DNA from: a virus
Lineage: Duplodnaviria; Caudoviricetes
DNA length: 36,513 nt
Virus record (IMG/VR): IMGVR_UViG_3300049844_000214
Span: 1-36,513 of that record
Strand: one strand, 5' to 3'
Below are positions 7,126 to 16,735 of the stretch, in pieces. The notes below the pieces were generated by a model. The model saw only the letters and a list, made by a program, of their open reading frames with translations, was not told the origin of the DNA and ran no database searches. The position numbers were made by a program, and so were the translations under genes. Positions within the stretch are counted from its first letter, which is position 1. Every line of letters starts with the position of its first letter.

Positions 7126-8406
7126 TTAGTTCCACCTGCTCAGTGAGCCGAATTGCGGTTGGTTGACGCTATCGTCCATCCTATTAATGAAGAAGTAGCG
7201 TAGAGCGTCATTGATATCATCATCCTTCTTGACTGGGTTCTCGTTAACGATACTGCCATTTTTCTCAGGATACACGTACTGCCTCATTGAGTCGATTAGC
7301 TTAGGGCATTTCGGTTCATTCACGAATAGCCTGATCTGCCCTGTCATGGTCTTGATGTGGTTTCGTACGAGTGTAATGCCCTTCTGAACCGGGCTAGAGC
7401 GGTACTTGAAGTGAATCGAGCGCTTGGGGTCTCTAAACCACTGAACGTTAGATCTACCCGTTTGCTCGCGCTCTTGGTTACCTGCGATATCGCAATAGTA
7501 TTCTGATATTTTGTATGGCTTAGAGATCATGATCTCGTAGAGCTTTTCTAGAGTTACCTTCGATTGACAGAACTCATCGATGACGTAGACGGTGTTTGTT
7601 TTCGTGTCGAGCTGAAGCCAAAGAACAGCAACGGGGTGAGCCCAACCCCAGTCGACTGACACATAAGTTGGTAGCTTATCGTCGTATGGGTATAGGCCAC
7701 AGTTACTCTCAGAGAAATCGTCGTAGACCAGGTTTGTAGCGGGCGTATTCCAATCGATCTCAAACATCGCTCTAAATGTGCGAGGAGATAGAGTGGCCTT
7801 CATCCGCTCTAACTCTTCTTGCGGGAAATGAGGGTTATCTTTCGTAAACCACACCCATACTCTTGAGTCAGGGAATTTGTTTTCTATAAACGTCTTGTAT
7901 ATCCAGTGAGCTTTAGGATTCACGATGTTTGGCCCGAGCGACCCTTCGATAGTTATCGTCCCCATCGTGTCTGATGTTCTGGCTAGAGACTCAAAGAACA
8001 CCTCTTCGCCACACTGAAACGCTTCTGTTATGAATATGTGATTTAGTTTCTCACCCTCCATGCGAGAGATCTTTTCGCCAGAGAAACTCTTGATCATAGT
8101 GTTATTCGTTTGCCACGTCATGATCTGATCGGACTTATTAAAGTCCTCCTCAAAAGGCTTAGCGAACTTACGAAACTTAGGCCAGACGAGACGTCTAAGC
8201 ATCCCTTCCGTGGGGGCGATGATTCCTATCTGATATGGGTCGCGTCCGTTATCGTTATAATTGGGCTGTTTTTCTGCCTTTAGAATCGTATCGATGTAGC
8301 AGGCCTCGCTCTTGCCAGATCTTTTGGCACTGCAGATCACTCTTATTCTGTGGTCATCCTGAATAAATTCTTGTTGAGCAGGAAACGGTTCAAATATTAT
8401 TGCCAT
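7126..8406 (-). CDS. terL: Terminase large subunit
   Basis: PFPAQ adenine-binding motif, Walker A-like KRSGKS, IIAPT, DNPHF, nuclease motifs VDWGWAHP and DDINDALRY. Confidence 0.93.
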   Translation of the reverse strand: MAIIFEPFPAQQEFIQDDHRIRVICSAKRSGKSEACYIDTILKAEKQPNYNDNGRDPYQIGIIAPTEGMLRRLVWPKFRKFAKPFEEDFNKSDQIMTWQTNNTMIKSFSGEKISRMEGEKLNHIFITEAFQCGEEVFFESLARTSDTMGTITIEGSLGPNIVNPKAHWIYKTFIENKFPDSRVWVWFTKDNPHFPQEELERMKATLSPRTFRAMFEIDWNTPATNLVYDDFSESNCGLYPYDDKLPTYVSVDWGWAHPVAVLWLQLDTKTNTVYVIDEFCQSKVTLEKLYEIMISKPYKISEYYCDIAGNQEREQTGRSNVQWFRDPKRSIHFKYRSSPVQKGITLVRNHIKTMTGQIRLFVNEPKCPKLIDSMRQYVYPEKNGSIVNENPVKKDDDINDALRYFFINRMDDSVNQPQFGSLSRWN

Positions 8407-9372: not shown

Positions 9373-9459
9373 GCGATATCGTCTATATTCCTAGACATAC
9401 CAAGTCAAGTCCTTTTTGACACAGGTAACAAAGACACAACTACCATTCGCAACGCCTAT

Positions 9460-9468
9460 TGTTATAAT
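9460..9468 (+). promoter_or_regulatory. Extended -10 promoter (TGTTATAAT); likely leaderless transcript for the ATG at 9476
   Basis: Consensus TGnTATAAT ends 7 nt before the ATG, and no RBS is present. Confidence 0.5.
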
Positions 9469-9475
9469 ATTAGAT

Positions 9476-9634
9476 ATGAAGACAAGAGCAGAACTTTTAG
9501 AGGACTTTGAAAAAGCCGCTAAGGCGCAGTGGCAACGTGGTCGAGAACTCGGCTACGAAGGTGAAGAGCTTCTGAGTTTCGTTTTAAGAGAACTAACCCT
9601 AGACATAGCCTACTTGATTAAACAGCTCGAATAA
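9476..9634 (+). CDS. Hypothetical protein (52 aa)
   Basis: ATG 9476 (MKTRAELLEDF...) follows the promoter. Confidence 0.55.
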   Translation: MKTRAELLEDFEKAAKAQWQRGRELGYEGEELLSFVLRELTLDIAYLIKQLE

Positions 9635-9797
9635 GGCGTGGCGGTCCTGGTTAGACACAGTCAGCCAAGACACGCCCTACCCGAAAACATTCCATCGCTC
9701 GAGGCTTTTCATATGCACGATACGGGCCGTGTCTCCATTGACACAATTGCACAAGTAATGCGGTATGTTATTATGTTGGTATTGAAGGCGAGGCGTT

Positions 9798-9983
9798 ATG
9801 AGAATGTTTATTACAGAAACCATGAGTAACGGCGAGATCAAAGAAACAGAAGTTTTCGATGTCGAAGAGTTCGGTCAAAAGATTATCGATGGTGTTTTCG
9901 CTTACCGAATCGATTACCTGTACTCACTTTCAAAAGCGGTACAGGAGACAAAACTCAAGACCTGTGAAACCAGCGCTGCCTGA
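9798..9983 (+). CDS. Hypothetical protein
   Basis: GAGG RBS; TGTTATTAT extended -10 upstream at about 9766. Confidence 0.55.
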   Translation: MRMFITETMSNGEIKETEVFDVEEFGQKIIDGVFAYRIDYLYSLSKAVQETKLKTCETSAA

Positions 9984-10215
9984 CAGTATCCAATTCCCAA
10001 CCGTGTTGAACAAGCCAACGCCACATGGTGGGGTATTTCTTTGAAGCCGTGGTTAATCCCAACTGATGCGCCTCTGAATGGTGCCCCCTACAAAGAGCCA
10101 TTAGGTTCGATATGGAGTTGTCTGCGTGTTTGCTACCACCGGACGCACCTCTTGTTTTGACGTGGTGGTGTTCGCCCAATCGCCCGCAAACTATGCAGTT
10201 CACAAGTTGTTTCAA
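9955..10215 (-). CDS. Small HNH/Zn-finger nuclease-like protein
   Basis: CxxC...HHVKTRGA.G...NLMALCRGHH.EAH..G motif. Confidence 0.75.
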   Translation of the reverse strand: MKQLVNCIVCGRLGEHHHVKTRGASGGSKHADNSISNLMALCRGHHSEAHQLGLTTASKKYPTMWRWLVQHGWELDTVRQRWFHRS

Positions 10216-10245
10216 AGGTAGTACCTAACCATTTCTCGCAAACCT

Positions 10246-10305
10246 GTGTGCAGTATCCTGATGTGCTGTTACGTAATGCATTATTGGGTGTAGTACAGTA
10301 ATCTA
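10246..10305 (+). ncRNA. 5-nt periodic tract E (putative guide RNA)
   Basis: gtgTg cagTa tccTg atgTg ctgTt acgTa atgCa ttaTt gggTg tagTa cagTa atcTa: 12 units with a pyrimidine (11 T) every 5th base, mostly preceded by G. Confidence 0.65.
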
Positions 10306-10308
10306 ATG

Positions 10309-10335
10309 GGCCACTTGATCGAAAGATCGGTGGCC
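10309..10335. terminator. GC-rich hairpin with GAAA loop, closing tract E
   Basis: GGCCAC(T)TGATC-GAAA-GATCGGTGGCC. Confidence 0.6.
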
Positions 10336-10341
10336 AAATTA

Positions 10342-10569
10342 TTAATGCGTAAATCCTTTATTTTCTTCAGCCCCATCAAGTAACTGCCTTGCCCACAACT
10401 GGAACGCTTCAATTGTGCATTTAAACTGATCTCTTTCAAACTCTCCTTGCGCATGCAATGCAATCGCTATCTTTTTAATTTCTAAATAGTCGTTTGGAGA
10501 AAGTCGACCCTCTACTATGCAATACTCCGTCGAGTTGTCTTCGTAGTCTTCATCATCCTCTTCTGACAT
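10342..10569 (-). CDS. Hypothetical protein (acidic N-terminus)
   Basis: ATG 10569 within track ORF 10342..10707, overlapping the end of the upstream gene. Confidence 0.55.
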   Translation of the reverse strand: MSEEDDEDYEDNSTEYCIVEGRLSPNDYLEIKKIAIALHAQGEFERDQFKCTIEAFQLWARQLLDGAEENKGFTH

Positions 10570-10741
10570 AGGATCCACATTCCACCGTATACTGCGACGA
10601 AAACTCTTCGCGGTCTTTACACATGAGACACAGGCGATTGTATTTCGAACGTGAGTGAAACTTCTTATTACACTTGAGACAGTCTCGCTTAACTGTTTTA
10701 GAAACACCTTTTGCTCTTCGTGCTCCGCCTCGTTTCGCCAT
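10553..10741 (-). CDS. Small Zn-finger protein
   Basis: CLKC..KF.S....NRLC..C motif. Confidence 0.65.
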   Translation of the reverse strand: MAKRGGARRAKGVSKTVKRDCLKCNKKFHSRSKYNRLCLMCKDREEFSSQYTVECGSYVRRG

Positions 10742-10756
10742 TAATTAAATTATGAG

Positions 10757-11449
10757 TTACTCGAACGGAATAAACAAAGGGGTGCGACCATTATTTAAAA
10801 CGACACCGCATCCAAGGACGGGTTTATTCCTCATGTACTTACCGTAAGCAAAAGCAAAAGAGGCTTCATCGATGAGGCAACCCACGTTCATGGCCCATAT
10901 GTTTTTCTTTATGTGATCAACTGCAGCGAAGGAATGAAGATGTCCAATGATCGTAGATATGGCTCCGTCAATTGCAGCATTACGATGTCCATCTTTACCG
11001 CTATAACCCATGCCGTGTATCACGCGAAATGGTTGCTTAGCTTCAACGATCCACTCTTCTTTCCAGTACCAACCTTTTGGAGCTTGAATAATTTCTTGGT
11101 AAGTTTTTAGTAACCGCTCTGGAATGCCTGCCTCTGATGCTTTTTTTAACCATCGTAATCCATGATTACTTATTGCAAGCTTCATTTCTGGAAATGCTTC
11201 ATACCAGAGAGAGAGTTCATTGATTGATTCCTCTAGCTCTACAACAGCGCTTAGTTTTGTGTTTGGGTCTTTGCCGTAAGAGCTAGCGAAGTAGAAATCC
11301 AACTCATCGCCGACGTGAAAACAGTTTGCGTCTGGGATTCTGTATTCTTTTTTCACGCGCTGAACGAATTCGAGTGAGCGCTTATGTTGAAACGGAATTT
11401 GAGTATCGGAGATTACAAGATATCTATCGGGATGAATTTTTGTGACGAT
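10757..11449 (-). CDS. Calcineurin-like metallophosphoesterase (probable ATC start)
   Basis: Motifs VISDTQ, VGDELD, SNH, IHG, GHLH. Motif I lies upstream of the track's GTG (11356), and the frame is bounded by an in-frame TGA near 11462-11464. Confidence 0.85.
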   Translation of the reverse strand: MVTKIHPDRYLVISDTQIPFQHKRSLEFVQRVKKEYRIPDANCFHVGDELDFYFASSYGKDPNTKLSAVVELEESINELSLWYEAFPEMKLAISNHGLRWLKKASEAGIPERLLKTYQEIIQAPKGWYWKEEWIVEAKQPFRVIHGMGYSGKDGHRNAAIDGAISTIIGHLHSFAAVDHIKKNIWAMNVGCLIDEASFAFAYGKYMRNKPVLGCGVVLNNGRTPLFIPFE

Positions 11450-11455
11450 AGAAAA

Positions 11456-11482
11456 TCCCCCTCACTTTAATTGTGAAGGGGA
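11456..11482 (-). promoter_or_regulatory. 10-bp hairpin covering the phosphoesterase RBS and ending tract D
   Basis: Minus strand TCCCCTTCAC-AATTAAA-GTGAGGGGGA followed by TTTT. Confidence 0.6.
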
Positions 11483-11485
11483 ATT

Positions 11486-11565
11486 TCAATTCAACAAAAC
11501 ATTACAATAAAAAACAACAACCCACTTAACCCAGCTTTAAAAGACTAAACGAGGCTGCGCATTAG
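11486..11565 (-). ncRNA. 5-nt periodic tract D (putative guide RNA)
   Basis: Minus strand cTaat gCgca gCctc gTtta gTctt tTaaa gCtgg gTtaa gTggg tTgtt gTttt tTatt gTaat gTttt gTtga aTtga: 16 units. Confidence 0.75.
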
Positions 11566-11572
11566 GTTTGCT

Positions 11573-11824
11573 TTATATATTACGTAGCCTATTTTTGGCT
11601 ACCGCCAATTGAAACTCAACTGAGGTGTTTCGGCTTGATAGTTCTTCATAGGCAACCTGGTACTTTTTCAGAACGTCCAATAAGAAAATCGTGTCAGAGA
11701 TAATGCCAATCTCGGCGTCTCTGTCATGCTCGTTACGTCTGATAATGAGTTCTATGCGGTGTAGTTCACCGTCCTTCAGTAGCTTCACCCGAATATTCTT
11801 GAGTGCTGCCATCGGTCTTGTCAA
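11573..11824 (-). CDS. Hypothetical coiled-coil protein
   Basis: ORF in the replication operon. Confidence 0.6.
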   Translation of the reverse strand: MTRPMAALKNIRVKLLKDGELHRIELIIRRNEHDRDAEIGIISDTIFLLDVLKKYQVAYEELSSRNTSVEFQLAVAKNRLRNI

Positions 11825-12209
11825 CCAATTCGTTTGATATGGTTTGGTTTACGATCTTCCACTCTAGATAGAATTCGGTCATCTTTTCTTTACCGTGACA
11901 CTTAAGACACTTCTGAAAGAACTCATCGTCCTTGAAGTTACCCGCTCTAAATAAATCATAAAGAAGCGCCTGAGTGGCCTCACTCTCTAAAGGGTTATCT
12001 CTTGCCCACCTCTGAGCATCAGCGAACTCTGTTTTGTCGGTCTCCGGAATATAGTTAATCCTGTGTAGTGGCTCATACCAAAGAGGTAGTCCCTTAGAAA
12101 ACTCAGGAGCAGATAAGCAAGGGCAGCGAAAGGAATAAGGGGCACACTTACGTTGCCATCTATGCTCGGCCCAAAAGATTCCCTTACCGTCACAAAGGTT
12201 ACATCTCAT
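11766..12209 (-). CDS. Hypothetical Zn-binding protein (CxxCxGxG...CxC)
   Basis: Cys motifs; coupled to the upstream gene. Confidence 0.65.
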   Translation of the reverse strand: MRCNLCDGKGIFWAEHRWQRKCAPYSFRCPCLSAPEFSKGLPLWYEPLHRINYIPETDKTEFADAQRWARDNPLESEATQALLYDLFRAGNFKDDEFFQKCLKCHGKEKMTEFYLEWKIVNQTISNELVDKTDGSTQEYSGEATEGR

Positions 12210-12738
12210 TACGAGTAAACCCTAAATTAATTTTTGGGATTGTGTTTTCAATACGATTTTTAATTATTTCACGTTCATACGTTACACGTTTAGCTTGATT
12301 TATTAACCCAGTAACTGTCTCTCGCCATTGAGCCTTTGTGCCCATCATTTGAGATCTATCGGCGGTAGCACATAAATCACTCCAACCGCCTTGCATTCGA
12401 ATCAATTGCCAACCAACTTCACCAATGTAGTCTCGAGCCATGGCGGGATTAGAATGCCCAAATTTCGAAACAGCTCCCCAAATTTTTTCTGTGATTTGTC
12501 TCGCCTCGTCTTCAACACTTGGCATAGAGCCCTTTAGTTTTTGTTTCAAAATAGCCGGCAAAGGACAACGGGTTATTTTTGGGTCTTCAGTGATCTCGCG
12601 AAAAACTTTATTTAAAGCATCGACAGGGATATCCGCTAAGTCTTCAGCCCACATCTTTACCGTCATGTCGGCCAGTGTCTCCCGATAATAAGCGGCGATG
12701 GTGAGAACAAATTTTATGTGCTCATCTAGTTTTTTCAT
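12199..12738 (-). CDS. Putative helicase loader/inhibitor (G39P/DUF6475-like)
   Basis: Directly after the initiator. W...L.D....P.PA.L and AVSKFG...GGWSDLC patterns. Confidence 0.65.
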   Translation of the reverse strand: MKKLDEHIKFVLTIAAYYRETLADMTVKMWAEDLADIPVDALNKVFREITEDPKITRCPLPAILKQKLKGSMPSVEDEARQITEKIWGAVSKFGHSNPAMARDYIGEVGWQLIRMQGGWSDLCATADRSQMMGTKAQWRETVTGLINQAKRVTYEREIIKNRIENTIPKINLGFTRNEM

Positions 12739-13528
12739 TTTTCGTCAGCCTTTCAAATTGTGCCTTCATTTGCTGCCCCTGGTTAGATAGCCTGGCATCA
12801 GAGGCGGTGTGCCAAACCCCAGTCGCAGCGTAAGCCTTCACCGAAGAAATATTTTGATACAACGCGGTAACGCTGTGGTGCGTTGTAATAAACCACGGAT
12901 CTTTAAGTTCAAAGAAAAAAGGGATCAGCTTCGAGAGGGTATCCCCCCCGGCGCTCTTAGCTAGGGCGTTCAAAAGACCCGCATCCTTCGGAGTTATTAC
13001 CGGATTAACTTGGTAAGTCTTTTTGTATTCTTCACAGTACACTGAAACACAATTTGGGATGACCTGAGGGCGCGAATGAAATGAGCGCGTAGTATTTGTT
13101 TGTTCTCTTGTTTGTTTACTTGTTTGTTCTCTTGTTTGTTTGGACGACATGGGTGTCACCGGGGTGACGACATGGGTGTCACCGGGGGGTGACATGGGTG
13201 TCACCGGGGGGGTGACATGGGTGTCGTATGGTTCATCGTCGTTTTTGAGGGGAGCGCACGACATGGATGTCACCCCTAAATCGTATTTATTGCACGACTT
13301 AAATGATCTGGTAATGGTCAAATATTTTAGTTTTTCAAGAGTAGTTATATGCCTTTGAACTTGTCTCTCGCTGAGTTTGGCTAACCTAGCTATTCTGGGG
13401 ATAGCAGGCCTCATATCAGGGTAATGACTAAGTATGGCAATTAGGACTAATTTCTCTGACGCCGAGATGTTTTTTAGTTCGCACAATGCAATTCTAGTAA
13501 CTAGTTCAAACTGAGTTTGTTTTTTCAT
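12722..13528 (-). CDS. Replication initiator (lambda O-like, N-terminal winged HTH)
   Basis: SEKLVLIAI...PAIPRIARLAKLSERQVQRHITTLEKLKYL...N.Y; central linker encoded by iterons. Confidence 0.85.
   Translation of the reverse strand: MKKQTQFELVTRIALCELKNISASEKLVLIAILSHYPDMRPAIPRIARLAKLSERQVQRHITTLEKLKYLTITRSFKSCNKYDLGVTSMSCAPLKNDDEPYDTHVTPPVTPMSPPGDTHVVTPVTPMSSKQTREQTSKQTREQTNTTRSFHSRPQVIPNCVSVYCEEYKKTYQVNPVITPKDAGLLNALAKSAGGDTLSKLIPFFFELKDPWFITTHHSVTALYQNISSVKAYAATGVWHTASDARLSNQGQQMKAQFERLTKNEKTR
13096..13276. repeat. Putative replication origin: iterons plus AT-rich repeats inside the initiator gene
   Basis: GACATGGGTGTC at 13146, 13169, 13191 and 13214, with variant GACATGGATGTC at 13260. 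Adjacent TTGTTTGTT-based 12-mers at 13096-13143. Confidence 0.85.
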
Positions 13529-13589
13529 GTTGATTTTGACAGGTAGAGTCGTATAAGATTGGGCCTCTGTTTTTTAGCAAAAAAATACT

Positions 13590-13638
13590 AACCCACGCTT
13601 TGAAAATGTCTAGTTTTCAGGTGTGGGTTTTTTATTTT
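13590..13638 (+). terminator. Intrinsic terminator-like hairpin (possibly bidirectional)
   Basis: AACCCACGCTTTGAAAA-loop-TTTTCAGGTGTGGGTT followed by a T-tract; A-tract upstream. Confidence 0.7.
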
Positions 13639-13656
13639 CTATCCGTGCAATGTGAA

Positions 13657-13887
13657 CTATTTGTTCATACCCGTCTCAACCCGACACCTTGGGCACAACT
13701 TCAACGACTCACTCGGGTGAAATGCCGTGCTGTCTGGGATTGTATAGCCCTCTCTCTTATACTGATTTAGTTTATTCCTTAGACAACGTATTGATAACCC
13801 TAAGCTTTCGGTTGCCTTTGTTCGATTCCAGTTATGTTTAGCGAGTGTGCTTATGATTAAGAATCTTTCAATCTCTTCGATCGTCAC
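13657..13887 (-). CDS. Fis-type HTH protein
   Basis: ERFLIISTL..HNWNRTKATESLGLSIRCLRNKLNQY matches the Fis/NtrC C-terminal HTH pattern. Confidence 0.85.
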   Translation of the reverse strand: MTIEEIERFLIISTLAKHNWNRTKATESLGLSIRCLRNKLNQYKREGYTIPDSTAFHPSESLKLCPRCRVETGMNK

Positions 13888-13914
13888 TTGATAATCGTAG
13901 CTTAGAATTAAAGA

Positions 13915-14235
13915 GTGACAATTCGATTCGCTATTAAGGGGAAACGCTGGCGAGTCACTCTGTTAACTGATCGGTCATTCTTTAAGCACGACCAAACAGC
14001 ATTGGCCTTATGTGAATTACCTCCTGATAGAAGGATTCTTTTAAAAAAATCACAGATAAATCTGCAAAATATTATGCATGAAGTGTTTCACGCATTTAAA
14101 TCTGAATGTTGTTTGAACAGTGCTGAGCTAGACTCGTCTCAGGTTGAAGAATTAATGTGTGATATTTTTGCTGAACACGGTGAAGAGGCTCTTGAATTGT
14201 CCCGTTGGATTCTTAAAGAAATAACAAAACAATAA
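13915..14235 (+). CDS. Small HExxH metallopeptidase-like protein
   Basis: MHEVFHA motif with downstream EE. Confidence 0.65.
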   Translation: MTIRFAIKGKRWRVTLLTDRSFFKHDQTALALCELPPDRRILLKKSQINLQNIMHEVFHAFKSECCLNSAELDSSQVEELMCDIFAEHGEEALELSRWILKEITKQ

Positions 14236-14310
14236 ATTACAGGAATCTACGAAACAGAATAAGACAATACGTTAGGATACACTAAAGAACAACAACCTAA
14301 GGCACATCAG
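14216..14310 (-). ncRNA. 5-nt periodic tract B (putative guide RNA), downstream of the RAMP gene
   Basis: Minus strand cTgat gTgcc tTagg tTgtt gTtct tTagt gTatc cTaac gTatt gTctt aTtct gTttc gTaga tTcct gTaat tTatt gTttt gTtat tTctt: 19/19 units have T in register. Confidence 0.85.
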
Positions 14311-14325
14311 CTTCAAAAACTGTGT

Positions 14326-14904
14326 TTAAATAACTTTGAATTTTGTTACGCGAAACCTTCCAAATGGACCTCCCTTAGAAACACGAAACGCTCCTATTCC
14401 AGCTCTCCGTCCAGCATCGTTCAATACTTGATGACAAATTTCTTGTGACAACAATTCTTCATCAATTTCTACAGTTGTTTTTACCTTCCACTTATCAAAA
14501 CGTGGACGACAGATCGCAACTGCACCCTTTAGATGGTTAGTTCCTTTCATAATATCAACTTCAAAGTTTTTGATCGGCTCATTGCTGTCATCTAAAAGCG
14601 TTATGTTCATATCAAGCGGACGAAACACACCGGCTGCAATAGCCTTTAAAGATCTTTTAGAATTAGTTTGCCTGTAGTCACTAGCTACCGCTTTGAATGC
14701 ACCACTTATGTATGTAGAAGGTATATAAAAAGAACCGTCTTCCGATTTATATGCGCCCTTTTCTGCAATCTCTCTCGGAGTTAATTCTTCCTTGTCCTGC
14801 TTTTTCTTCGTCTTCGCTCCAAGCAAACCAAACAAAGCCTCTTCGCTCATGCGGTGTTGAAGAAGTGCCGAATCTCCAGTCAACTCAACCTCTATGGTTT
14901 TCAT
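14326..14904 (-). CDS. Solitary Cas7-like RAMP-fold protein (192 aa; Vipr-like)
   Basis: AAGGAG RBS before ATG 14904. N-terminal strand IEVELTGDSALLQH, YIPSTYISGAF (compare Cas7/Csm3 IPGSSxKG), RPRF..W and C-terminal Gly-rich loop GIGAFRVSKGGPFGRF. Confidence 0.85.
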   Translation of the reverse strand: MKTIEVELTGDSALLQHRMSEEALFGLLGAKTKKKQDKEELTPREIAEKGAYKSEDGSFYIPSTYISGAFKAVASDYRQTNSKRSLKAIAAGVFRPLDMNITLLDDSNEPIKNFEVDIMKGTNHLKGAVAICRPRFDKWKVKTTVEIDEELLSQEICHQVLNDAGRRAGIGAFRVSKGGPFGRFRVTKFKVI

Positions 14905-14915
14905 TTGAACTCCTT

Positions 14916-15005
14916 TTAAATTAACAATACAAAACAGTACGAGACCGAACATAAACGCACCCTAAAACACATGACGCTAAGATACGCTAAAGAAGAGCAC
15001 TCTAG
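14916..15005 (-). ncRNA. 5-nt periodic tract A (putative guide RNA) in the RAMP gene leader
   Basis: Minus strand cTaga gTgct cTtct tTagc gTatc tTagc gTcat gTgtt tTagg gTgcg tTtat gTtcg gTctc gTact gTttt gTatt gTtaa tTtaa: 18/18 units have T in register. Confidence 0.85.
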
Positions 15006-15033
15006 TTCTACTTCGCCTCATATTTATGACGCA

Positions 15034-15062
15034 CTTATACACAACTAGACGCTGCGTGTAAA
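15034..15062 (-). promoter_or_regulatory. Sigma70-type promoter for tract A, RAMP gene and tract B
   Basis: Minus strand TTTACA-17 nt-TATAAG. Confidence 0.65.
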
Positions 15063-15063
15063 C

Positions 15064-15077
15064 TTAACAATTGTTAA
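15064..15077. promoter_or_regulatory. 14-bp perfect palindrome next to the -35 box (candidate operator)
   Basis: TTAACAATTGTTAA. Confidence 0.45.
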
Positions 15078-15079
15078 CG

Positions 15080-15838
15080 CTATTTAGGAGTGTAAATCTC
15101 TGCCAGCGCGTGGATTGGGTGGTCGGCTGGCTCCATTGGCTCAAACATGGCTTTAAATCCGCCCTGCCGCTCAATTTGCTTCAAGTGTGTCTTATAGATC
15201 CAAGTACGAAACCATGACGGTTTACACTTGTACATAGCGCTCGTCATGAGCCAAAGCATGGCATACTCTGACCAGTGTTTCTTCATTGGTAGTAACCACG
15301 TAAATGCGGCAGAACCCAATAACCATATAGCGCCGGTTGGGTCTACAAATTGAGCATTCGATACAACCTCGAGCATGTAAATCACATGCGGCTGCAAACT
15401 GAACCTAATTCTAGGGTCCTGTGGTTGTTGAGTGTCCCACCTTAGCTTCGATCGCTTAACTCTCGCATTAATCTCAGTCGCGGTGTCGAATCCAAACAAA
15501 CTCGCTCCAGCCGCTATAGCGATTAAATTGTCCACCGAATTAGGCAACGTTTTGTCGCCAGGACGACGGTCATATATTCCAATTCCAGATCTTAACTTTG
15601 TTAATATGCTTTCGAACTGTTTACGTTCTTTAATCGTTATGTGCTCACCACGAAGATAGTAAGCATAAACTAAAAATAACAATCCATTGTGGTTCAAAAC
15701 AGTTGGGCCCATTCCAAACCCAGGATGAGTTTCATCCTTTTCTAGTTTCATGAGGCCGTCGTCAGCTAGATACGATTGTTCGATAATTTTAACAGTATTA
15801 TTCAATATTTCATAATGAGCTGGAGGCGAATATTCCAT
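15080..15838 (-). CDS. Hypothetical alpha-helical protein (252 aa)
   Basis: Long ORF; no family recognised. Confidence 0.7.
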   Translation of the reverse strand: MEYSPPAHYEILNNTVKIIEQSYLADDGLMKLEKDETHPGFGMGPTVLNHNGLLFLVYAYYLRGEHITIKERKQFESILTKLRSGIGIYDRRPGDKTLPNSVDNLIAIAAGASLFGFDTATEINARVKRSKLRWDTQQPQDPRIRFSLQPHVIYMLEVVSNAQFVDPTGAIWLLGSAAFTWLLPMKKHWSEYAMLWLMTSAMYKCKPSWFRTWIYKTHLKQIERQGGFKAMFEPMEPADHPIHALAEIYTPK

Positions 15839-15885
15839 TTCTAAATTGTGACATCCGTTTTAATAGTTTCAAAATATGCCAATGC

Positions 15886-15950
15886 AATTTAGTGTTCTGT
15901 AAATTTATGTTTATTACGGTTTTGTAAATTTCTGTGGCGTTTTGTAATGT
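15886..15950 (+). ncRNA. 5-nt periodic tract C (putative guide RNA) in the SSB-like gene leader
   Basis: aattT agtgT tctgT aaatT tatgT ttatT acggT tttgT aaatT tctgT ggcgT tttgT aatgT: 13/13 units. Its variable dinucleotides match 16011-16037. Confidence 0.85.
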
Positions 15951-15971
15951 TAACAATTCGAAGGAGGTCGA

Positions 15972-16457
15972 ATGGGTTTATTTAATGCTAAAATTGAGAC
16001 GAGCGGTAATTCGAAGTACTTGACTTTGAAGTCCGGCGATAGATATGTCGGCACTTTTCAGGGCTCACCGAAAGAGGGTTGGGTGCTCTGGATCGACGGT
16101 AAGCCTCAACCCGCAGAGTACGGGACACCCGGCGCTAAGTTTCAGTTCGAAATGGCTTTCGTCTTGAAAGACACTTTTGAAGCCAAAATCTTTAAGGGCG
16201 GCGTTTCTATTTATTCACAACTCAAGAAACTGGAATCCGAAGGCTACGACTTACTCAAGACTTGGATTTCTATTTCTCGTAAGGGCGAGAAACTGGACAC
16301 CGAGTACATGGTGATGCCTATTCCACAATTCCAAATTCAAGGTGCCGATGCAATGAACATAGAAAAGGCTCTTGCTAAGTCACCCGCAAAACAAGCCAAT
16401 TTAGGCTCATTATTAACATCGGATGATGTGCCTTTTATGCGTAAGGAGTGGTTATGA
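15972..16457 (+). CDS. Putative single-stranded DNA-binding protein
   Basis: AAGGAGG RBS, beta-rich core with ISRKGEKLDTEYMV, and SSB-type DDVPF tip near the C-terminus. Confidence 0.7.
   Translation: MGLFNAKIETSGNSKYLTLKSGDRYVGTFQGSPKEGWVLWIDGKPQPAEYGTPGAKFQFEMAFVLKDTFEAKIFKGGVSIYSQLKKLESEGYDLLKTWISISRKGEKLDTEYMVMPIPQFQIQGADAMNIEKALAKSPAKQANLGSLLTSDDVPFMRKEWL
16011..16037 (+). other. Gapped target site matching tract C (NN-skip code)
   Basis: TCg AAg TAc TTg ACt TTg AAg TCc GGc versus tract C dinucleotides TC AA TA TT AC TT AA TC GG. Confidence 0.8.
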
Positions 16458-16735
16458 AACTAACAGACACGCAACGAGTAGCTATTAATAAACAACTAAC
16501 CGCGGGTCACTCTGCAGCTGATCTCGCCAAAGAGTACGGCGTCAGTACGAGCACGATTTACAACTTGAAAGACGCTAAACCTACTAAGCGAGTAAAGAGA
16601 CGTACTAAAAAGAAATCTGATCATAGCGAGCTTGTGATGCTTCGTGAGTCGAATACTTTTCTTATTCGTCGTAACGATGAGTTGAATCAGTTGATCGGTG
16701 AACTCTACGCTGAACAACGGCTTGATAATTACTAA
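16448..16735 (+). CDS. HTH DNA-binding protein with C-terminal coiled coil
   Basis: SAADLAKEYGVSTSTIYN. True start is probably ATG 16454. Confidence 0.75.
   Translation: MVMKLTDTQRVAINKQLTAGHSAADLAKEYGVSTSTIYNLKDAKPTKRVKRRTKKKSDHSELVMLRESNTFLIRRNDELNQLIGELYAEQRLDNY

Follow-up and report, generated by a model that had tools for sequence, protein, structure and literature searches.

Tract E, a period-5 repeat on the plus strand of a phage genome (10217-10306), is probably (probability roughly 0.6) a stand-alone VIPR guide RNA gene that spells a variant of the adjoining 75-aa gene and would direct Vipr to silence the versions carried by related rivals, the phage's own copy, with six mismatches, probably escaping. 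VIPR is a CRISPR-like gene silencer described in preprints of 2026 (10.64898/2026.04.26.720920, 10.64898/2026.04.26.720927). The stretch of DNA analysed (the window, 36,513 bases) represents an entire phage genome of 36.5 kb, bounded by direct terminal repeats and rated 100% complete, in which terminase and capsid genes are present. For tract E we observed the repeat, a hairpin, a Vipr homologue encoded 4 kb away and an in-register match to a protein family; the mechanism we infer from that of Escherichia phage SUSP1.

The repeat has the form NGT/NN. Its clear core of 12 units occupies 10247-10306, one base further on than originally predicted (10246-10305), while the predicted triplets and 13 dinucleotides were found exactly as listed. 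The core is well preserved, as 11 of the 12 clear triplets carry the T and 9 the G. The 5' units are degenerate and keep only the third-position pyrimidine, a register that indeed extends back from the core to give 18 units, the first one starting at 10217 and not at 10216; the informative units are those at 10227-10291. In the whole window, scanned on both strands, none of 300 dinucleotide shuffles held a run like that of tract E, with thresholds taken from the tract itself (12 consecutive units, all with the pyrimidine, T in 11 or more and G in 9 or more), so that the shuffle comparison proposed with the original prediction came out in favour of the tract. Taken by itself, the pyrimidine run of 18 units lacks significance, as 15% of the shuffles have one. 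A matrix scan trained on tracts A-E returned exactly five tracts in the window over a span of 5.7 kb, in agreement with the earlier view of five scattered tracts and no single array. In this matrix the first triplet base is free (G in 12%), the second is G in 63% and the third is T in 91%. Both neighbours of tract E lie on the minus strand, namely an HNH-like gene (9955-10215), with a 5' leader that, on the opposite strand, overlaps the degenerate 5' units of the tract, and the 75-aa gene (P0118, 10342-10569), which is convergent with the tract and has no assigned function. Tract E had been thought unique among the tracts in running opposite to its flanking genes; its own orientation was borne out, but tract C also lies on the plus strand. 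The sequence at 9800-16500 was found in identical form in one DNA sequencing run, possibly its source, no RNA run was listed as containing the sequence, and Rfam gave no matches over 9900-16100 at E up to 1.

A GAAA-loop hairpin on the plus strand (10309-10335) is the predicted 3' tail or terminator of the putative RNA. It is present as predicted, though two bases, not none, separate it from the tract. Its fold of -18.3 kcal/mol (z -4.9) was not equalled in stability by any of 200 shuffles. When the strands were compared, the plus strand (-18.0 kcal/mol, with a GNRA loop and a G-U pair) folded more stably than the minus strand (-14.5 kcal/mol), and both surpassed 200 of 200 shuffles. On the minus strand the hairpin comes six bases past the stop codon of the 75-aa gene and, as this strand folds too, it could simply end the transcript of that gene. 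Among the tracts of the clade, 10 of 72 are accompanied within 45 nt by a hairpin at least as stable as -10 kcal/mol. Promoter scans revealed no sigma-70-like promoter upstream of tract E on the plus strand. Instead of being transcribed separately, as originally proposed, the tract could form the 3' part of a longer transcript that comes from the plus-strand ORFs at 9416-9983.

With regard to a protein partner, the vipr gene (14326-14904, minus strand) lies 4,020 bases (4.0 kb) from tract E on the opposite strand and encodes a RAMP-fold protein of 192 aa, the predicted partner of all five tracts. We found 116 homologues of this product, and the resulting 117-row profile matches the Vipr protein of SUSP1 (36pp_D) at E 1.6e-13. 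The structure model (pLDDT 92.6) matches Csm3/Cas7 folds, and on this evidence the genome encodes a Vipr protein (a RAMP fold with a G-loop). His17, Arg133 and Arg174, which align with H17, R138 and R179 of SUSP1 Vipr, are kept in 113, 117 and 117 of the 117 rows, respectively. D177 of SUSP1 Vipr is reported to read the first G of the GGY triplet (10.64898/2026.04.26.720920, 10.64898/2026.04.26.720927); the corresponding position is Ser or Ala in 114 of the 117 rows, and this replacement of the Asp that contacts the first G would fit the free first base of the NGT triplet. Close Vipr homologues have the same repeats beside their vipr genes. The neighbours of vipr (15080-15838 and 13915-14235), among which an accessory vap gene was sought, gave no informative Pfam or PHROG match. 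In GTDB genome contigs the only close Vipr relative (57%) is on a 6.4 kb contig (L110) of an Oligoflexales MAG, a weak hint at a Bdellovibrionota-like host that is too weak to assign one.

To read the tract we skipped one target base after each dinucleotide. With the degenerate 5' units included, the best genome-wide match of tract E was then the adjoining 75-aa gene, on its coding strand and in wobble register (19/24 read bases over twelve units and 20/26, or 77%, over thirteen). This near-self site (10390-10428, minus strand) covers codons 48-60, with the skipped base at the wobble position, and lies 84 bases from the tract, in frame, on the most conserved motif of the protein family. At the nucleotide level 24 of 150 shuffles equalled the match genome-wide, so that it lacks significance there (p 0.16). 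At the protein level 2 of 200 shuffles scored as well, and in a local test covering 1 kb on either side 10 of 1000 shuffles reached the skip-1 score of tract E. Skips of 0, 2 and 3 were unsupported for this tract in the local test, with 228-283 of 300 shuffles doing as well, while among all 20 local tests three with a wrong skip also went down to 4-5 of 300. When only the 12-unit core was tested, tract E stood outside the top 25 of 129 tracts.

The guide departs from the phage's own gene at six codons (guide/gene: Leu/Phe, Ala/Thr, Tyr/Phe, Asn or Lys/Gln, Ile or Met/Leu and Val/Ala). Five of these six guide residues, all except Tyr, occur in at least one of four homologues of the 75-aa protein (P about 0.001, a post hoc value that takes the six single-base variants as equally likely). 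Moreover, four of the six mismatches fall within the five read units nearest the tail. A test with a profile of the homologues only gave 0 of 3000, a result that is not independent, since the homologues had been found with the phage's own 75-aa protein.

These four homologues make up, with the 75-aa protein, a small phage protein family. With a cut-off of E 0.001 the family search returned a further 10 proteins. Three short ones, which align over the conserved motif, were kept; the other seven are longer, mostly matched in several stretches, and were left out. The fourth homologue, on a phage contig from a viral scan (L116), is likewise encoded beside a phosphoesterase gene; the record is a 34% fragment in which no vipr match was found. 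This homologue agrees with guide E at 12/12 bases over the first six read units and at 15/16 over the first eight (14/16 for the phage's own gene), but its overall agreement of 18/26 is below the 20/26 of the own gene. Counted by codon, the four homologues are compatible with the guide at 7, 8, 8 and 7 of 13 codons, compared with 7 for the own gene. As none of the four fits better overall, the true target of tract E is so far unseen, and the allele of a rival and that of an ancestor look alike as candidates.

The exact gapped search suggested with the original prediction came back empty, as exact patterns of 10 and 9 units had no match in IMG/VR. Two looser patterns retrieved 6 and 9 stretches there, among which the contig of the fourth homologue was the only clear family member; the first of these patterns is not independent, as it was loosened after that homologue was known. 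Unrelated contigs chosen by pattern reached 20-21/26 against the guide. Further family members were not detected by word-based protein searches, in 131 genomes from the phylum of the Oligoflexales MAG or in 50,697 phage records; two viral scans gave only the fourth homologue among the matches listed, and the ESM Atlas gave no usable match.

The same code was examined in the wider clade by testing the 1-nt skip on 129 tracts against their own loci (47 in all). Six tracts stood out, those of L005, L030 and L070-L072 together with tract C. The L005 guide (7678-7752) matches its own vipr at 26/28 bases and the vipr genes of L002 and L094 at 27/28, and the L030 guide (1828-1927) matches its own vipr at 19/20. 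In both L005 and L030 the sole mismatched unit inside the span that matches comes from a synonymous switch between six-fold codons in the own vipr (of Ser in L005 and of Arg in L030), a type of silent change that a wobble skip cannot ignore. L070-L072, which are one element, match at 22/26, antisense in the next gene; they represent a VIPR locus that is more distant (L072 1317-1381 and 1660-1698) and has its last guide matched to this gene of 578 aa, which appears helicase-like by eye.

Tract C (15883-15952, plus strand) is situated directly upstream of an SSB-like gene (15972-16457), in which, 59 bases downstream of the tract, it finds a self site (16011-16037, plus strand) with 18/18 read bases over nine units in wobble register. 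No shuffle reached this match, either genome-wide (0/150) or locally (0/1000). The last three units of the tract match at 3/6 bases, and terminal units of the clade's tracts are biased to a few dinucleotides. Tract C is thus a candidate for true self-targeting or autoregulation, and its perfect nine-unit self match means that self-avoidance is no rule in this phage. A scan for SSB-like homologues with an upstream guide gave three weak loci; in L007 a 29% SSB-like homologue has a weak tract behind it. The original reading of tract E as a guide is thereby strengthened, given the vipr gene in the same genome and a skip code that decodes tracts E and C onto real genes.

By analogy with SUSP1, an RNA of about 110-120 nt would be made from the plus strand of the tract E locus, and Vipr would form a filament on it, with one protomer per five-base unit and the triplet hidden. 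The dinucleotides would then pair with the template strand, every third base being skipped, and, going by the SUSP1 structures, this gapped pairing would begin near the 3' tail. Transcription of the target would be blocked without cutting. Given that guide E spells a variant of its neighbour, it is probably aimed at the copies in rival phages, while the mismatched own copy, with most of its mismatches next to the tail, would probably escape. The 75-aa gene and guide E would move together as a small cassette, apart from the vipr locus.

Four other explanations were weighed against this reading. Tract E could be a relic written from an ancestor of the neighbouring gene, which has since escaped or been replaced, leaving a guide without living target or expression. 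Neither IMG/VR nor the homologues yielded a matching allele, the tract is degenerate in its 5' units, the promoter scans were negative, and family-like residues suit an ancestor as well as a rival. However, the core and the hairpin of tract E are as intact as those of the tracts beside vipr, and in a family of five sequences an absent allele means little; we therefore consider this explanation unlikely. Another option, which appears quite unlikely, is that tract E is a working self-guide whose partial match dampens the 75-aa gene as well as read-through into the HNH-like gene, tract C acting likewise on the SSB-like gene. It would account for the own gene being the best match anywhere in the family, for the perfect match of tract C to its own gene, and for the fact that both guides abut their genes. 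On the other hand, a tuned self-guide has no need of differences that in five of six cases are residues of other family members, the mismatches cluster next to the tail, and the 77% identity is below the 80% cut-off given in the text of the VIPR preprint.

That tract E is a guide for some unrelated sequence, its likeness to the neighbour arising by chance, is compatible with the genome-wide nucleotide statistics and with the scores of the pattern-selected unrelated contigs, but we judge it very improbable because of where the match falls (so close to the tract, in frame, on the most conserved motif), because the differences are residues of the family and because tract C repeats the arrangement. 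Finally, the position of the hairpin just behind the stop codon of the 75-aa gene on the minus strand is what one would see if tract E were no guide but a chance periodic stretch beside an ordinary terminator. This is extremely improbable in view of the empty shuffles and of a motif that is the same as in the tracts flanking vipr, here and in relatives.

The arrangement of the tracts also distinguishes this phage. Tracts A (14917-15006) and B (14217-14311), both on the minus strand, lie directly upstream and downstream of vipr, respectively, and tract D (11456-11566, minus strand), which has a terminator-like hairpin, lies upstream of a metallophosphoesterase gene. When 25 other loci with a length of 10 kb or more, several of them duplicates, were examined, all strong tracts (score at least 22 and G in half of the second positions) were on the vipr strand and started at most 1.2 kb from vipr; this cut-off dropped weaker off-locus stretches with scores of 18-20 (e.g. 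in L007 and L023), and tracts built on other motifs may escape the matrix. Three complete phages that encode close Vipr homologues had no tract in their further stretches, which were covered except for the last 0.7 kb of one. The window is an exception, with tracts 2.8 and 4.0 kb from vipr and two tracts on the other strand. The order vipr, array and metallophosphoesterase recurs (L030 1828-3181; L006 10603-11627), and the same gene follows tract D in the window, where replication genes sit between tracts B and D. Tract D may therefore be the end of an array that was split off by the replication genes. Targets for tracts A, B and D were not found on either strand of the window or of about 1 Mb of loci, nor in five further stretches of four phage records; weak protein-level matches of A and B in L116 were lost at the base level (18/38 and 17/38). 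Tracts A and B resemble each other over about 17 bases close to their 5' ends, perhaps reflecting a common origin or target, and the plus-strand ORF at 13915-14235 ends, convergently, within the 3' end of tract B. Short tandem repeats with a period of 11-12 bases, possibly origin iterons, are present at 13093-13262 in an HTH replication-initiator-like gene. Elsewhere in the clade some arrays are staggered and contain as many as 13 guides or more (L002 4423-5244, L003 10601-11043, L032 800-1095 and L034 3014-3368); in these the guides are joined by a short constant linker with a register shift of one base, as in published staggered arrays.

Compared with the published systems, tract E would work like VIPR, and by the published definitions it is neither a type II nor a solo guide. 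As far as the preprint text describes type II VIPR (Escherichia phage SUSP1 and a Pseudomonas fulva prophage), the two have in common a phage-borne single-RRM RAMP protein with a G-loop, pentamer repeats with variable dinucleotides and 9-16 units (12 clear units here), a structured 3' end, which here is the predicted hairpin, and a 1-nt skip on the wobble base, seen here computationally for tract C (18/18), L005 (27/28) and, together with its family support, tract E (20/26). The type II triplet is GGY and its guides flank vipr and end in an invariant tail, whereas the triplet here is NGT, the five tails differ, and tract E stands far from vipr on the other strand. The NGT/NN repeat belongs with the non-canonical YNNNG (10.64898/2026.04.26.720920) or WGT/NN (10.64898/2026.10.21.760802) classes, whose degenerate triplet is of the same kind; in the text of those preprints, unlike in the window, they appear as motifs beside Vipr-like genes, without decoded targets or detached guides. 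Orphan vrRNAs are defined as having no Vipr on the contig or none within 20 kb (10.64898/2026.10.15.759431). Tract E had been called an orphan, a name it loses with vipr 4.0 kb away on the same contig; it is a detached guide. With the solo vrRNAs of SUSP1 satellites and VIPR-null phages (10.64898/2026.10.15.759431) it shares being a single guide outside an array and, in the preprint's account, probably also being aimed at relatives, with a self match lower than the rival match. Solo vrRNAs, however, have no vipr within 20 kb and are described as targeting vipr, vrRNAs, satellites or host REP sites, whereas the phage of tract E has its own vipr and the tract adjoins the own copy of the gene it spells. 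The preprint's P. fulva, type III and type V sets contain no self match of at least 80%, in contrast to the near match of tract E and the perfect one of tract C. In the text of the VIPR preprints, with which the comparison was made (data S1-S4 aside), no guides beside their own copy of the target are reported.

A further signal bears on how such guides arise. In tract E each dinucleotide, together with the first base of the triplet that follows, gives the correct codon in cases where the choice counts (Cys versus Trp). When four guide-target pairs were pooled, one of them being tract E, from which the idea arose, this free first base specified the residue of the target at 19 of 24 split-box codons, against 12.4 expected on the basis of 68 other tracts (P 0.004); the third base itself is identical at 10/24 split-box and 2/14 four-fold codons. 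Tract C agrees with the third bases of the SSB-like gene at 1/9 positions. Sense stop codons are mildly under-represented in those 68 tracts (24 versus 32.1 expected, P 0.034; 20 versus 28.9 with ends trimmed, P 0.013), and no such signal was seen for antisense stops or for freedom from stops in one frame; with many stop codons remaining, the link between guides and codons is loose. The third-base agreement, as read from sequence, suggests that guides are copied codon by codon; it would fit either copying of entire codons from a diverged allele or pairing of a third base. As a tentative possibility, guides of this clade may arise when a gene is copied by codon, with GT inserted after each codon and the product placed beside its source. 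Tracts E and C would then be acquisition footprints, the free first base would be the wobble base of the source, and a gene-plus-guide pair would act as an allele-exclusion cassette against kin phages.

The text of the VIPR preprints is silent on how guides arise and on how a phage avoids silencing itself. Here two guides sit beside the genes they spell, tract E mismatched and tract C perfect over nine units, together with one small Vipr. With this pair a single reporter assay could directly address mismatch tolerance, seed position and self-avoidance, and the window offers natural target read-outs for the NGT/NN class. The third-base signal can be tested too, as a hint at how guides originate or at a read-out of three bases.
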